Notes: a model not told the origin generated them from the letters alone. Positions 7,373 through 25,719 are shown, numbered from the stretch's first letter. The stretch: DNA of 64,000 nt from Promethearchaeota archaeon (GCA_019058445.1 JAHPZA010000009.1:448001-512000); one strand, 5' to 3'. Numbers and translations are program-made.

Positions 7373-10300
7373 TTATTTTTCTTCTGCATTTAAATTGAGA
7401 TAAGTATTTTCAAGAACATTTAGATATTCAATCAATTCTTTGTCACTTTTAGACTTTTGCTCGTATGCTTGCTTGATAACCTCTAATATGTATTTTGGAA
7501 AAACAAGCTCTATATAAAAGTCCGATTGGAGGGCATAATACTCCGTTCCACTCTTGTCTTGAAGAACTTTAATCATATTAGCATCCCACAGTAAATTTAA
7601 CACTTTACTCACATCTTCTACTCCTTTCTTCTTAAGTTTTTCAAGATCATCTTTCGTGACAATAGCACTTCTTAATAATTGAAACGTGTGATAAACCTCT
7701 GGATCAGCTAAAATATTTAAGATTTTTAGGTTGTCTAATTCTGTGGGGGTATATTGCTCAAAGAATGTTTTGACCTCATTAAGATAAACTTTTGTAAGTT
7801 GAGAAGGTAATCCTTTTTTTTCTGGAGTTTTCACTAATTCAACCGAAGGTATACGAAGCATTATAAGATCACCTGTGAGGAAATTTAATTCTGAAGGTAA
7901 ACCCTTAACCGAGACTTGTTTGATAATTTCTCTTTTTACAAGCTCTATAAGAACCACTTCCAAATCAAAAAGCCCTTCTTTATATTGATCTTTGAGCCAA
8001 ACCATTAATTCCGATTTATCTATTATTCCTTCCTCTCTTAGACGATTTATAGTCATCTGTTTTATTTTATCATGATAGATATTCATGAGTTGCTGTTCTC
8101 TATTAAGAGTAGGATAAACAGCTAAACGTCGAAATAGAGAGGGGATCATCGATATATAAGCATCATCTTCTAAGTTTTGGAGTATAATTTGTAAAATATC
8201 GGCCATTCCCCCTTCATAAGCATCCGCATCATCTTCAAGATTTAAAATTAAAACAAGATAATACCCCTTTTCTGGTCCAGCATAATAGGAAGCTAGATTT
8301 AAGTTAGTTACAATTAAATTAACCATACCTGATTCCCCTGTATATTCATGAGCACCGTATATTTGCATTAATGTTTTACGTGAAAGTTCAATATCTTCAG
8401 GATATTTAGCTAATAGTTCTGTACCTATTCGTTCATCCCATTTCATAAGAAGTAATCCAGATGGCATAAGATCAGCACTCCTCTCAGATTTTAATGATTC
8501 TTTCTTAAAGATAGGCAAGATTTTTCCCTTTTTAACAGGAATTTCGAAAATATCTTTTATCGACAGTCCGAGCAGATCCCATTTCTCACTAACCATATTT
8601 ACCAAATATCCTTCCTTATTTGCAATTGAAAGTGTTTCTGGGATCACTTTAGATTTTTTAATTGCAGCCTTCATAGATCGAATTTTTTTGACAAATTTAG
8701 GAATTTTGGCTAATTGAATATATTTATATGTTGCAAGACTCCCTACAACGGCAGTAATAGCTATGAGAAGGATAAGTAGATAAAATATGGGAATAGAAAC
8801 TCCTTCTTGTGAATCTAAACCTGGAATTATTTCTAATTCTTCCATTTCAATGACAATGGTTATATCAGTATCCTCAGAAGTATAGTTTGCTTTTGATATT
8901 TTGATGGTACCTGTTATCGTATTTGAAGTAAAAAAGGCCTCATACTCATCTGTTTCAAATTCAAATTCATACACCCCATCTTCCACTTCCTCAAATTCAA
9001 AATCATCATCATCAATCTCTAATATTACCGTTGCTCCTTTCAACGGAATATCTCCTTGAGTTGGATCGGTTAATTCGATAGAAAGGGTGATCTTTTCTCC
9101 TTTAACTACACTAACTTGCTTATCTTCAAACATATCACCTAGATCATAATCAATTTCTCTTAGATTAACTGTTAAAGTAACTATTACAAATTTAGAAACA
9201 TAGTTTTGTTTATCAAACTCAACCCATACCGTATAGATGCCAGGTTTTAATGTCTCAGTATTGATATCTAAAATATACTCATTATTACTATCATCAAAAT
9301 CTAAATTTCCTGCTCCATAGTCTATAGATTGTTGATTTGACCCCTCAATAGTGATTCTATATTCTTGGATATCTAAATTTGTGATATCAGTGGTTAACAT
9401 CGCATCGGTATATGAAAAAGTATAATTCACTGCATCTTGCACGTAGATGCTTCGATATATCTGAATATCAGTCGAAGCTCCGTTTATCAATGTTAAACGC
9501 TTCAATACTTTAATATCCAATTTTTTAGTTGCAGATTCATAATGATCTTTTGAAACGATAAATTCCACAGTATATTCTCCGGCATTAATTAAAGAAGTAT
9601 CAATAGATTGCACAAAATATATGCCTGATTCATCAGAGTAATAATCTGGTACGATGCCATGCACATCTGGATCTTCTCGTATTTTATACGATACCGTCCC
9701 AGAAGTCTCATAACATACAGTTCTTACATAACTTACACTAAAAATAATCGTAAAATTAACAGCTTGATTGGTTTCTATACTCGCGGAATAGAGGATATCC
9801 TTGCTAAAACCTCCCAAGAAAAATGAACCCTCTCCCTGAAGTGTATTCGAAATACTATAGGTTTGCCCTCCGATGGTAATATTCATGGCTAATTCCGATG
9901 GAAAAAAATAGTCAATACCATCAGTAATATCTTTAATTATTAAAAAACTGCCCTGATCTTCAAAATTATCGGGAAAAACAAGAGAGAATTCTCCTCCATT
10001 ACTGAAATCGTCCTCTATTATTGTCATACTAATATTTTCTAAGCGTTGATGCCAATAAAATCCCTGAAAATATTCCACTGTAATATTGACATCGAACATA
10101 ATAGCTGAAGATTTAATAATATCAAATAAGAATTGATCATCTAAAGGATAAACCGTCATATTATCAATAATTACTCTTGCCATTCCATTACCAAGGTTTT
10201 CTAACGTATAATTATACCCCTCATATGTCGTAAATTTTGAAATTACAGTAGTTGGATCATCTATTAAACTCCAATCTGAAGAATTACGACAATTAGAGAG

Positions 10301-23976: not shown

Positions 23977-25719
23977 ATTAATATCGAAAATAATGATAAT
24001 TATCAAGACTCAAAACCAAAAATAACATTAGTAGGATATGACAAAGTAGGAAAGAGCACGATTTTCAACTTGATTAAAAGCAATGAGATTCCCATAAAAC
24101 ATGCTCAGTCAATTAAAGGAGATATCGCTACTACAAAAATTGGTAAATTTAATTTCTATATATGGGATTACACTGGAGTTGAACATTTTAGCTTTATATG
24201 GGAAGAATTTATTAAAGAAAGTGATGCCGTCTTATTGATTACAGATTCTACTAAGGAAAATATTGAAAAAAGTAAATTTTTTTTAGAAATAATACGTTCA
24301 GAGGCTCCAATAGCAAATGTTGCTGTAATTGCCAATAAGCAAGATTTAATACAAGCAATGAATGCAAAGGAAATTGAAAAAATTTTAGGCTTCAAAACAT
24401 ATTCAATAGTAGCAGTAGATCCAATTAATCGAATAAAAATAATTCAAATAATTGCTGAACTCTTAAATATTAGTAGTGGTGTATCTCAACAAATAAGAAC
24501 TATGGAAGAAAGAGATAACTTGAGAAATTATTTAGAACAATTAATTGAAGATAATGACTTCCAATTAGCCAATACTGTAATTGACAGAATTATAGATTTG
24601 TGTGTAGAATTAGGTGACGACGCACTCAGTAATGATTTCAAGGAACTAGGAATCAAATTAGATCATATTTTAGATGAGAAAATAAATGATATTGGGCAAC
24701 TTATCCCAGAAGGCCTCACAGAAACTGAACCAGCTGAAGGACAGGCAACATCTGTTAAAGCAAGACTTCTTGAAACCCTTGTAACCAATTATATGAAAAG
24801 TATTGAGAGTGTTATAGAAGTAACTATTTGTGACCGAGATGGATTTACAATAATGTCTCAAAGTAAAAAGAAAATAGCTAGGGATGATGTTTTAGGGGCA
24901 ATGGCAACTGTTATTGATGACTATATTGATAGAATGAAAAATGAATTTGATGCCGAAGGTAATTTCTTTAATATTACTATGATTAGTGATAAAAAAATTG
25001 CATATTGTTCAATGGGTCCAAATTCAATATTAACTAGCATCGCAGAACTTTCTGCATCTGATGTTGAATTAAGAATTTTTTCAGAACATGTTGCGAGTAA
25101 AGTTGAATTAATTCTAGAGGGAAATGAAAATGTTGATGTTGAAATCCCCTTAGTTATAACGACAATGTCAAAATCTAAGGGAGGAGAACTTCCTACTGGT
25201 AAATTTTCGACTAAAATTATAATGACTGGTAATTATCAAGTTGGTAAAACCTCTTTAGTAAGTAGATTCGTTCGCAACCTTTTCCAGGAAAGCTATCAAT
25301 CCACAATAGGAGTAGATCTTTCAGAAAAAGTAGTAGAACTTAGTGATGATACAAAAATAAAGTTTATTATATGGGATATTGGCGGACAAATAACTCAAAT
25401 AGCACCATATAGAAAAAGGTTTTATGAAGGTGCAAATTCTGCTTTTATTGTATTAGATAGAACCCGGCCGGGAACTTTAAAGAGTGTGGAGATTTGGTAT
25501 AATGATATTAGTAAATATGTTAATGAAGATATCAATATTATAATAGTTGGAAATAAGACAGATCTCACAGACGAAATAAAAGTAAGCGAAGAAGATATAA
25601 GAAGTTTAGCTGAAAAATTTGGTTTCCATTACATTCTCACATCCGCCAAAACAGGTGAAAATGTTAACGATGCCTTTTTATATATAGCTTATAAATTTTT
25701 AGAATCAATTTCAAGTTAA
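23977..25719 (+). CDS. Tandem small GTPase: Arf/Rag-like G domain, helical linker, roadblock/LC7 domain, Rab-like G domain
   Basis: The frame extends upstream of the track's TTG (24070) to include the P-loop KITLVGYDKVGKST and is bounded by TAA at 23974-23976. First G domain: WDYTG, NKQD. Roadblock-like segment: VTICDRDGFTIMS...LGAMA. Second G domain: GNYQVGKTS, STIGVD, WDIGGQ, NKTD, SAKTG. Start codon uncertain (ATT 23977 or ATC 23983). Confidence 0.88.
   Translation: MNIENNDNYQDSKPKITLVGYDKVGKSTIFNLIKSNEIPIKHAQSIKGDIATTKIGKFNFYIWDYTGVEHFSFIWEEFIKESDAVLLITDSTKENIEKSKFFLEIIRSEAPIANVAVIANKQDLIQAMNAKEIEKILGFKTYSIVAVDPINRIKIIQIIAELLNISSGVSQQIRTMEERDNLRNYLEQLIEDNDFQLANTVIDRIIDLCVELGDDALSNDFKELGIKLDHILDEKINDIGQLIPEGLTETEPAEGQATSVKARLLETLVTNYMKSIESVIEVTICDRDGFTIMSQSKKKIARDDVLGAMATVIDDYIDRMKNEFDAEGNFFNITMISDKKIAYCSMGPNSILTSIAELSASDVELRIFSEHVASKVELILEGNENVDVEIPLVITTMSKSKGGELPTGKFSTKIIMTGNYQVGKTSLVSRFVRNLFQESYQSTIGVDLSEKVVELSDDTKIKFIIWDIGGQITQIAPYRKRFYEGANSAFIVLDRTRPGTLKSVEIWYNDISKYVNEDINIIIVGNKTDLTDEIKVSEEDIRSLAEKFGFHYILTSAKTGENVNDAFLYIAYKFLESISS

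Follow-up and report, generated by a model that had tools for sequence, protein, structure and literature searches.

Whether surface proteins of archaea can be connected across the membrane to small GTPases is the question raised by a 64,000-nucleotide (nt) stretch of DNA from Promethearchaeota archaeon (GCA_019058445.1, JAHPZA010000009.1:448001-512000; hereafter the window), an Asgard archaeon of the Lokiarchaeia type. The window contains three giant genes, oriented in the same direction on the minus strand, whose products end on the cytoplasmic side in a module of a longin domain and two winged helices. A gene encoding two GTPase domains lies divergently beside them. A sequence-only reading of the window had proposed that extracellular glycan or cell-contact sensing is relayed by this cytoplasmic tail, acting as a guanine nucleotide exchange factor (GEF) or GTPase-activating protein (GAP), to the neighbouring GTPase. 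We found that the tail is normally a separate cytoplasmic protein and thus not specific to receptors, and that its attachment to a receptor is a derived state, the product of a gene fusion. The structural assignment of the tail and its link to the surface protein are well supported, and we hold both with high confidence; the connection to the GTPases is graded separately below.

The giant proteins share one order of parts: an N-terminal signal anchor, three units of DUF2341 plus Laminin_G_3, a stalk of Ig-like and CarboxypepD_reg domains, one transmembrane helix, a basic juxtamembrane segment and a tail of 364 amino acids (aa). In copy A, Pfam recognizes Laminin_G_3 (E 1.3e-55) and DUF2341 (E 1.3e-19) in three stretches each, and the transmembrane helix is followed by a strongly basic stretch, matching the positive-inside rule. 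The ectodomain of this copy carries 54 N-x-S/T sequons, compared with about 29 expected from the shuffled sequence, while its 450 cytoplasmic residues carry none, which supports this topology. The tails of the giant proteins lie exactly where the sequence-only reading had placed them and begin with the same residues (Table 1), and the module of about 365 aa that it had described behind the transmembrane helix corresponds to the 364-aa tail, separated from that helix by about 86 residues. Copies A and B are 89–95% identical in the stalk, transmembrane helix and tail (92% for the tails compared with each other) and merely 45–65% identical in the LamG region. Five copies of the fused gene stand in tandem in the genome (contig C9:430340-471669), and two of them, D and E, lie outside the window.

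A homologue search of 1.84 billion representative proteins (E<=1e-3) placed the tail in a family of 318 representative clusters, most of which are free-standing proteins of about 360 aa that start precisely at the tail's first methionine. Every one of the 627 homologues of similar length carries the name "hypothetical protein", and none has a Pfam domain; a Pfam scan of the tail itself found no dedicated family and gave weak matches to winged helix-turn-helix (HTH) families alone. The tail was modelled with AlphaFold2 (AF2) using a 60-sequence family alignment (pLDDT 95.2, pTM 0.88), and a single-sequence AF2 model, which reached pLDDT 39, was set aside. The model runs bbabbbaa, aaaabb(b), linker helix, aaaabbb and terminal helices (a, helix; b, strand), and the elements of its longin domain (strands E4-11 and E15-22, helix H30-43, strands E47-53, E56-62 and E69-75, helices H81-97 and H103-116) have pLDDT >90. 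The model was compared exhaustively with 48,161 PDB chains (VIA), a comparison that effectively tested mostly residues 1–123. Residues 1–120 matched NPRL2 in GATOR1 (8fw5_B) with Z 12.1 and a root-mean-square deviation (rmsd) of 2.6 over 118 aa, the VAMP7 longin with Z 11.3, the Lokiarchaeal Roadblock-Longin protein 8yqg and Npr2 of the SEA complex with Z 10.9 each, the uDENN domain of DENND1A with Z 10.6, and Lst4, FNIP2, FLCN, sedlin, sigma-adaptins and Mon1/Ccz1 with Z 9–10.8. More than 20 solved longin domains were matched at Z 10–12, with rmsd 2.6–3.7 over 103–123 aa. Foldseek gave MON1A/CCZ1, NPRL2/3 (GATOR1), Fuzzy-Inturned and BLOC-3 as the best chains, those of GATOR1 with E values of 2e-4 to 7e-4, a probability of 0.94–0.99 and TM scores of just 0.19–0.26. 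A longin fold for residues 1–120 of the modelled tail is therefore firmly supported, and the longin domain proposed earlier is borne out by both searches; likewise, the two segments that had been taken for winged helices fall inside the first (wH1, residues 140–185) and second (wH2, residues 262–301) winged helix of the model.

The preference for NPRL2 over the other longins is within the noise of the method, as NPRL2 ties with VAMP7, Lst4, DENND1A and FLCN/FNIP. What points to NPRL2/3 is the modelled architecture, in which a longin is followed by tandem winged helices, together with the search of the ESM Atlas with the whole tail model, where the best eukaryotic clusters were NPR2 (TM score just 0.30–0.37). 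NPRL2 and NPRL3 consist of a longin domain and two or more aaaabb winged HTH domains (PMC3747258), and the model displays the same arrangement (longin 1–120, wH1 121–206, wH2 243–322). The Pfam models NPR2 (PF06218) and NPR3 (PF03666) matched neither the tail (E<=0.1) nor any of the 60 family members (E<=1), and for this reason we do not assign the tail to the NPR2/NPR3 sequence families. DENN proteins were also considered: no DENN Pfam match occurs in the tail or its family, and the longin precedes winged helices, not a DENN core.

The module is present in 121 of 121 genomes of the class, with 2–16 matches in each, nearly all of them in open reading frames (ORFs) of about 370 aa, and its usual form is a free protein of ~367 aa. 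This distribution and the 318 clusters show that the features did not arise by chance. In all 20 loci sampled from 10 genera, the adaptor gene lies directly 3' of a giant gene (1200–2600 aa), the product of which has an N-terminal hydrophobic anchor and a transmembrane helix about 100 aa from its C-terminus. Many of these pairs are in the same frame with one TAA between them. The unfused junction reads ...GGA GGx xxx xxx TAA ATG CCx (GGAGG-N-TAA-ATG), so that the Shine-Dalgarno sequence of the adaptor lies within the Gly-Gly codons near the end of the surface-protein gene. The source genome also retains such an unfused pair (L006). An alignment of 54 fused and unfused surface proteins revealed a conserved juxtamembrane motif, IPxFVKKxRxMKKxIKxxKxI...KE...W...GLS, which is thus a candidate docking site, and the adaptor most likely docks on this basic segment of the surface protein. 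The genome also encodes, in a 447-aa ORF (G000:C10:662772-664112), a longin related to that of the tail together with a GTPase domain.

All fused tails fall in one clade of a maximum-likelihood tree of 59 tails (support 100/99), the lone "split" row inside it being a fragment cut at a contig end, and the five copies of the source genome form a subclade of their own (support 99/96). This topology indicates that the stop codon was lost once and that the tandem expansion in the source genome occurred later. A junction-spanning probe detected unbroken frames of 2000–3000 aa in the genera designated g1, g2 and g5. Copies A and B keep a relic Shine-Dalgarno sequence, AGGAG, and an ATG at the junction, GAG AGG AGT GCT GAT CTT ATG (GAGAGGAG; minus strand, 8468-8482 and 16785-16799), and it is possible, judging from the sequence, that internal initiation yields a free adaptor from copies A–C. 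In copies D and E, GTC or ATA replaces ATG and there is no Shine-Dalgarno sequence. We ruled out that the fused ORFs are an artefact of assembly or annotation, because all five copies, and the fused genes of many other genomes as well, have an uninterrupted frame; these open frames, together with the loss of the ATG and Shine-Dalgarno sequence in the older copies, indicate that the fusions are real and old.

The GTPase gene (P0004) that had been noticed about 320 base pairs (bp) from the receptors is real, with its frame opening 319 bp from the start codon of receptor copy B, and the divergent layout of receptor and GTPase is repeated at two orthologous loci. Its Rab-like domain has the complete motifs of a Rab-like small GTPase (GNYQVGKTS, WDIGGQ, GNKTD and SAK) and matches Rab1, Ypt51 and Thor-Rab in the PDB with E values of about 1e-27. 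In the Arf-like domain, G1 and G4 are intact and G3 reads WDYTGVE, without the catalytic Gln. The scores of the central domain with roadblock models are all under the curated cut-offs (MAPKK1_Int E 0.03, with 3.9e-4 for a paralogue and 2.2e-3 for an orthologue; Robl_LC7 E 0.08), and a PDB sequence search with this domain gave no match. A minority of the GTPase homologues have precomputed PF03259/PF08923 matches, and the nearest Atlas feature clusters of the central domain are Robl_LC7 (score 0.81). The central domain is probably a roadblock domain, although the evidence is weak; of the two G domains and a roadblock domain read from the sequence earlier, the former are clear and the latter scores below the cut-offs. 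Double-GTPase homologues of similar layout (517–571 aa) occur in other metagenome-assembled genomes (MAGs) of Promethearchaeota.

The start of the double GTPase is unusual. The codons for its P-loop, GYDKVGKS, come before the first canonical start codon, TTG 24070, and the P-loop precedes the first ATG/GTG/TTG at all three GTPase loci compared, namely the window (23968-24070), L060 (about 900-1060) and L061 (about 1000-1180). At each of them the frame opens after a GGTG/AGGT motif and a stop codon, with ATT, ATA or ATC within a few codons, and the peptide KPKI-x-L-x-G-x3-VG(K/R)(S/T)T is conserved among the three. Given the position of the P-loop and the conserved peptide, non-AUG initiation looks real, and the GTPase probably starts at ATT 23977, ATC 23983 or ATA 24022.

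A second, paralogous GTPase lies outside the window at the other end of the array (C9:428158-429138), convergent with the last receptor gene and 1.2 kb from it. This protein combines a probable roadblock domain with a Rab-like G domain, and it shares 60% identity with residues 264–578 of the double GTPase. Between this GTPase and the array, a conserved protein of 289 aa is encoded (G000:C9:429322-430191; L042:5322-6191), and a protein of 289–292 aa occupies the position between a roadblock-Rab GTPase and the 3' end of the receptor gene in at least 7 loci. This neighbour has no Pfam match, its Atlas relatives are unnamed Asgard clusters only, and it may be a further component of the system. When random 41-kb intervals of the source genome, which has 103 GTPase-domain ORFs, were examined, 0.15% had GTPases within 1.3 kb on both sides. 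About 6% of the ORFs in this genome have a GTPase ORF within 350–500 bp, including 2.3% that overlap a GTPase ORF.

The linkage was followed in 17 fused loci from genera g1, g2 and g5 and from a metagenome contig of unknown genus (L013), all reached from the tail, so that the presence of a GTPase had no influence on which loci were sampled. In 13 of the 17, the next-door or next-but-one neighbour is a roadblock-Rab, double or Arf-like GTPase. Divergent GTPases are found in 8 of the 13 observed 5' flanks and GTPases in 11 of the 15 observed 3' flanks, the latter comprising 8 roadblock-Rab units (7 behind the 289-aa protein), 2 Arf-like GTPases and 1 second double GTPase. Receptor genes number 1, 2 or 5 in the arrays linked to GTPases, and several of these arrays are paralogues found in a single genome; the association that had been read from a single locus is thus conserved for the fused clade in at least three genera. 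Look-ups from GTPase homologues led to an adjoining giant gene in 6 of 6 cases, with the tail confirmed in 2 (L036/L037 and L038); in the remaining four cases the contig ends within the giant gene, ahead of the tail, and one of these truncated giants carries DUF2341.

In genus g2, the association extends to unfused adaptor genes, which are immediately followed by convergent Arf-like GTPases. Residues 9–228 of the double GTPase are 49.5% identical to these Arf-like proteins, and as its two halves resemble both types of neighbour, the double GTPase unites both adaptor-associated GTPase types. At several g2 loci (L020–L023 and L025), tandem pairs of surface protein and adaptor have a convergent GTPase of 350–360 aa wedged between the units, composed of an N-terminal domain of about 125 aa with no assigned fold and an Arf-like G domain. 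An Atlas search with the N-terminal 130 aa of the g2 Arf-like GTPase gave no usable match, and hhalign of the tail longin profile against this N-terminal domain and against the roadblock region returned a probability of <7% each. A complex prediction for the tail (alignment A1) and the roadblock-Rab unit (alignment A2), run without controls, scored 0.00 and gave no answer, which speaks neither for nor against binding. A Rag-like GTPase located 2.5–3.6 kb upstream of unfused pairs in four genera was not counted as linkage, because it belongs to a housekeeping synteny block that includes RuBisCO-like genes; genes for a PfkB kinase and a methyltransferase intervene.

The reading that we favour is as follows. 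The tail is a membrane-tethered copy of a widespread Asgard cytoplasmic adaptor, built of a longin, two winged helices and a helical end, which is usually separate and would dock on the conserved basic juxtamembrane segment of the surface protein encoded upstream. In one clade, a single loss of the stop codon between the genes turned the adaptor into a permanent cytoplasmic tail, and the fused gene then expanded to five tandem copies here, with diversification of the lectin-like LamG heads. The longin face, either by itself or together with another longin or a roadblock domain, could serve as a docking platform for the roadblock-Rab-like GTPases that flank the array, and docking would position or gate a GTPase switch on the cytoplasmic side of the surface protein. 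We give even odds that the tail docks the flanking GTPases and that receptor and GTPase are functionally linked; binding of a GTPase by the tail and any effect on its nucleotide cycle are inferences. Information might flow from outside to inside, as sensing, or from inside to outside, as control over the placement, clustering or turnover of the surface protein, and the glycan or contact sensing with outside-in signalling that had been proposed is a guess. A complete transmembrane receptor-to-small-GTPase switch, in which ligand binding or clustering of the LamG heads alters the engagement of the flanking GTPases by the longin tail, possibly via a heterotypic longin-roadblock platform, and thereby controls the nucleotide state at the membrane, seems to us unlikely; if true, it would be an archaeal precursor to the way in which eukaryotes combine longin platforms with Rag/Rab GTPases on a membrane, wired directly to the cell surface.

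Several observations weigh against a role directed at GTPases, and some of them favour a narrower explanation, in which the module serves the surface protein alone as an adaptor (in biogenesis, membrane insertion, clustering or cytoskeleton/ESCRT-like anchoring) and the GTPases are neighbours by descent. The link to the surface protein is universal among the 20 sampled loci and the 121 genomes, while adjacency to GTPases occurs only in the fused clade and, among unfused adaptors, in a single clade of genus g2. The observed flanks of four fused loci out of 17 (L046, L047/48, L052 and L056) hold no GTPase, and most unfused pairs outside genus g2 lack an adjacent one. In several genomes, synteny with the double GTPase extends to genes for a phosphodiesterase, a GH38 mannosidase and an N6/N4 methylase; as these are unrelated genes, part of the linkage may be inherited gene order. 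In addition, the compared loci are related by descent, so that the counts overstate their independence, and operons that join a GTPase gene to its regulator are not the rule in Asgard archaea (PMC10933270). Nor does the fold alone point to GTPase regulation, since NPRL2 ties with longins that do not regulate GTPases, and VAMP7, Sec22, Ykt6 and sigma-adaptins score as high. A role confined to the surface protein, however, leaves aside that two GTPase types stand beside three adaptor contexts, in varied orientations and at paralogous loci within one genome, that the double GTPase fuses homologues of both types, and that the GTPase bracket is kept around arrays of 1, 2 and 5 receptor genes. Given these features, we consider this explanation somewhat unlikely.

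The tail might instead be a catalytic GAP of the GATOR1, folliculin or C9orf72-SMCR8 type that reaches with an arginine finger into the Rag-, Arf- or Rab-like GTPase encoded next to it. In the GAP longins FLCN, NPRL2 and SMCR8, beta2 opens with a GP motif and an arginine finger is present; C9orf72 has an essential W33-D34 five residues ahead of G38-P39; and an Asgard longin class that has both the GP motif and the finger has been reported (PMC12290439). The best single structure match of the tail is NPRL2, the arginine-finger subunit of GATOR1. Moreover, the (F/W)DxxxG signature pointed out in the sequence-only reading is conserved in the family at the beta1-beta2 turn (W10 in 54/60, D11 in 45/60 and G15 in 56/60), and the spacing of W10-D11...G15 equals that of W33-D34...G38 in C9orf72, as a match of sequence spacing only. 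The proline of the GP motif, however, follows G15 in merely 8 of 60 sequences and is Thr in the window protein. Within the longin (tail residues 1–120), no alignment column of the 60 sequences has >=70% Arg (R13, 29/60); the near-invariant arginines of the tail, R205 and R266 only, both sit in the winged helices, and the beta4-beta5 loop reads S-Y-Y-x-G, with no basic residue. Pfam NPR2 matches 0/60 family members. With no conserved longin arginine and a rare GP proline, a GAP mechanism of the GATOR1/FLCN/SMCR8 type is unsupported, as is the GEF or GAP activity suggested earlier, and we regard it as very unlikely. The presence of W-D-x3-G without an arginine finger makes the tail look like a non-catalytic platform or partner subunit, in the manner of C9orf72, NPRL3 or Ragulator, and this is more likely than an arginine-finger GAP. 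The chance is slimmer still that the tail regulates transcription while tethered to the membrane, in the manner of ToxR/CadC, with winged helices that bind DNA and a longin that senses or dimerises. Such a function would suit the ArsR/SmtB-like wH2, which matches the ArsR repressor 6j05_B over residues 240–322 (Z 8.2, VIA), the match of the family profile to the winged HTH of PH1932 (E 0.0011) and the weak matches of several family members to HTH_20, HTH_5, HTH_24 and TrmB. On the other hand, the winged helices are net neutral to acidic family-wide (median charge -1 and -2), which argues against DNA binding; the entire module is acidic, the conserved basic residues number only one per winged helix, and NPRL2/3 use the equivalent tandem winged helices for protein contacts.

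Table 1. Positions of the receptor, tail and GTPase features within the window (nt, counted from its first letter)
Feature	Position	Strand	Description
Giant receptor-adaptor fusion, copy A (P0001)	7373..15325	-	ORF, 2650 aa
Giant receptor-adaptor fusion, copy B (P0002)	15690..23657	-	ORF, 2655 aa
Giant receptor-adaptor fusion, copy C	1..7095	-	ORF, cut by the window edge
Tail of copy A	7373-8467	-	364 aa, begins MPSGLLLMKWDERIG
Longin domain of tail	8108..8467	-	Tail residues 1-120; bbabbbaa topology in the AF2 model, structure matches
Winged helix 1 (wH1)	7850..8107	-	Tail residues 121-206; aaaa and beta hairpin in the model, weak Pfam winged HTH matches, R205 nearly invariant
Winged helix 2 (wH2)	7502..7741	-	Tail residues 243-322; ArsR-like shape in the model, R266 nearly invariant
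C-terminal helical pair	7376..7501	-	Tail residues 323-364; predicted in the model
Basic juxtamembrane segment, copy A	8468..8725	-	aa 2201-2286, about 86 residues
Single transmembrane helix, copy A	8726..8788	-	aa 2180-2200, IFYLLILLIAITAVVGSLATY; hydrophobic run
Tail of copy B	15690-16784	-	Begins MPSGLLLMKWDERIGTELLAKYP, like copy A
Partial tail of copy C	1-189	-	First 63 tail residues, begins MPSGLILMKW
Divergent intergenic region, receptor copy B to GTPase gene	23658..23976	.	319 bp; AGGTG motif and TAA stop directly before the GTPase frame
Double GTPase (P0004)	23977..25719	+	Up to 580 aa; opens 319 bp from the start codon of receptor copy B
Arf-like G domain	24019-24471	+	About aa 15-165; Pfam Arf E 7e-24
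Probable roadblock domain	24682-25131	+	About aa 236-385, behind a helical linker
Rab-like G domain	25201-25710	+	aa 409-578; Pfam Ras E 7.5e-44

Downstream of the double GTPase, the window contains a type I phosphodiesterase/sulfatase-like gene (26316-27836) and a GH38 alpha-mannosidase-like gene (30292-32781), both of which are syntenic with it in several other MAGs (L034, L035 and L038). Their synteny could be inherited order or could reflect a link to the processing of heavily glycosylated surface proteins. Two tandem ORFs of 250 aa on the minus strand (27892-28644 and 28725-29477) have no Pfam match, and a solo TnpB-like gene (OrfB_IS605 with a Cas12f1-like TNB domain) is located at 33726-35003.

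Asgard genomes encode about 100 small GTPases each, along with dozens of longin and roadblock proteins. Predicting the partners of these GTPases is said to be difficult, since operons rarely include their genes (PMC10933270). The locus offers a concrete and repeatedly conserved candidate partner set, consisting of a giant glycosylated surface protein, an NPRL2/3-shaped adaptor, and roadblock-Rab-like and Arf-like GTPases, and gives some unassigned Asgard GTPases testable partners. What the window adds is the single origin of the fused clade through loss of a stop codon, the five-copy array with diversified LamG heads, and the bracket formed by the roadblock-Rab and double GTPases. If the link is physical, the logic of longin platforms and GTPases known from eukaryotic endomembranes would already have been present at the archaeal membrane, attached to surface proteins, which would bear on the origin of the machinery for trafficking and nutrient signalling. 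If it is not, the tail family still represents a surface-protein adaptor that is ubiquitous in Asgard archaea and has gone without annotation. The fusion provides a natural tethered construct for biochemistry.

Among known systems, the closest in architecture are NPRL2 and NPRL3 (Npr2 and Npr3 in yeast), subunits of GATOR1/SEACIT, the GAP for RagA/Gtr1. Like them, the modelled tail has an N-terminal longin and two aaaabb winged helices within about 360–380 aa, and is associated, genomically or functionally, with GTPases that combine a G domain and a roadblock domain, the latter a probable one in the Asgard proteins. Unlike them, it has neither a Pfam NPR2 match nor an Arg78-type finger, no DEPDC5-like partner was found, and the whole-chain TM score is just 0.2–0.37, the arrangement of the domains not being superimposable; moreover, a giant surface protein either carries the tail or is encoded together with it, which is not known of any NPRL protein. 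NPRL2-like longin proteins of Asgard archaea, both free-standing and in many lineage-specific fusions, have been described by Liu et al. (bioRxiv 10.1101/2020.10.19.343400; asCOG category in PMC9834061), and the tail family very probably belongs under this heading. The fusions mentioned in the accessible portion of that work are to two-component signalling domains, whereas those described here involve DUF2341/LamG surface proteins, obligate pairing and a GTPase bracket. In the literature that we searched, neither the obligate pairing or fusion with giant surface proteins nor the GTPase bracket is described.

C9orf72, of the C9orf72-SMCR8-WDR41 ARF/RAB GAP complex, shares with the tail the W-D-x3-G sequence at the end of beta1 and start of beta2 (equal in spacing to its W33-D34...G38-P39; PMC12290439) and is likewise a non-catalytic longin subunit without an arginine finger. 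In C9orf72, the longin is followed by a DENN domain, as opposed to the winged helices of the tail, in which the proline of the GP motif is mostly absent. Ragulator/LAMTOR-Rag and MglB-MglA offer a further parallel, in which a membrane-anchored roadblock/longin platform docks GTPases that carry or bind roadblock domains. The GTPases flanking the array likewise comprise a G domain and a probable roadblock domain. In the Asgard arrangement, the anchor would be a single-pass surface protein instead of a lipidated scaffold, and the platform would be a longin combined with winged helices.

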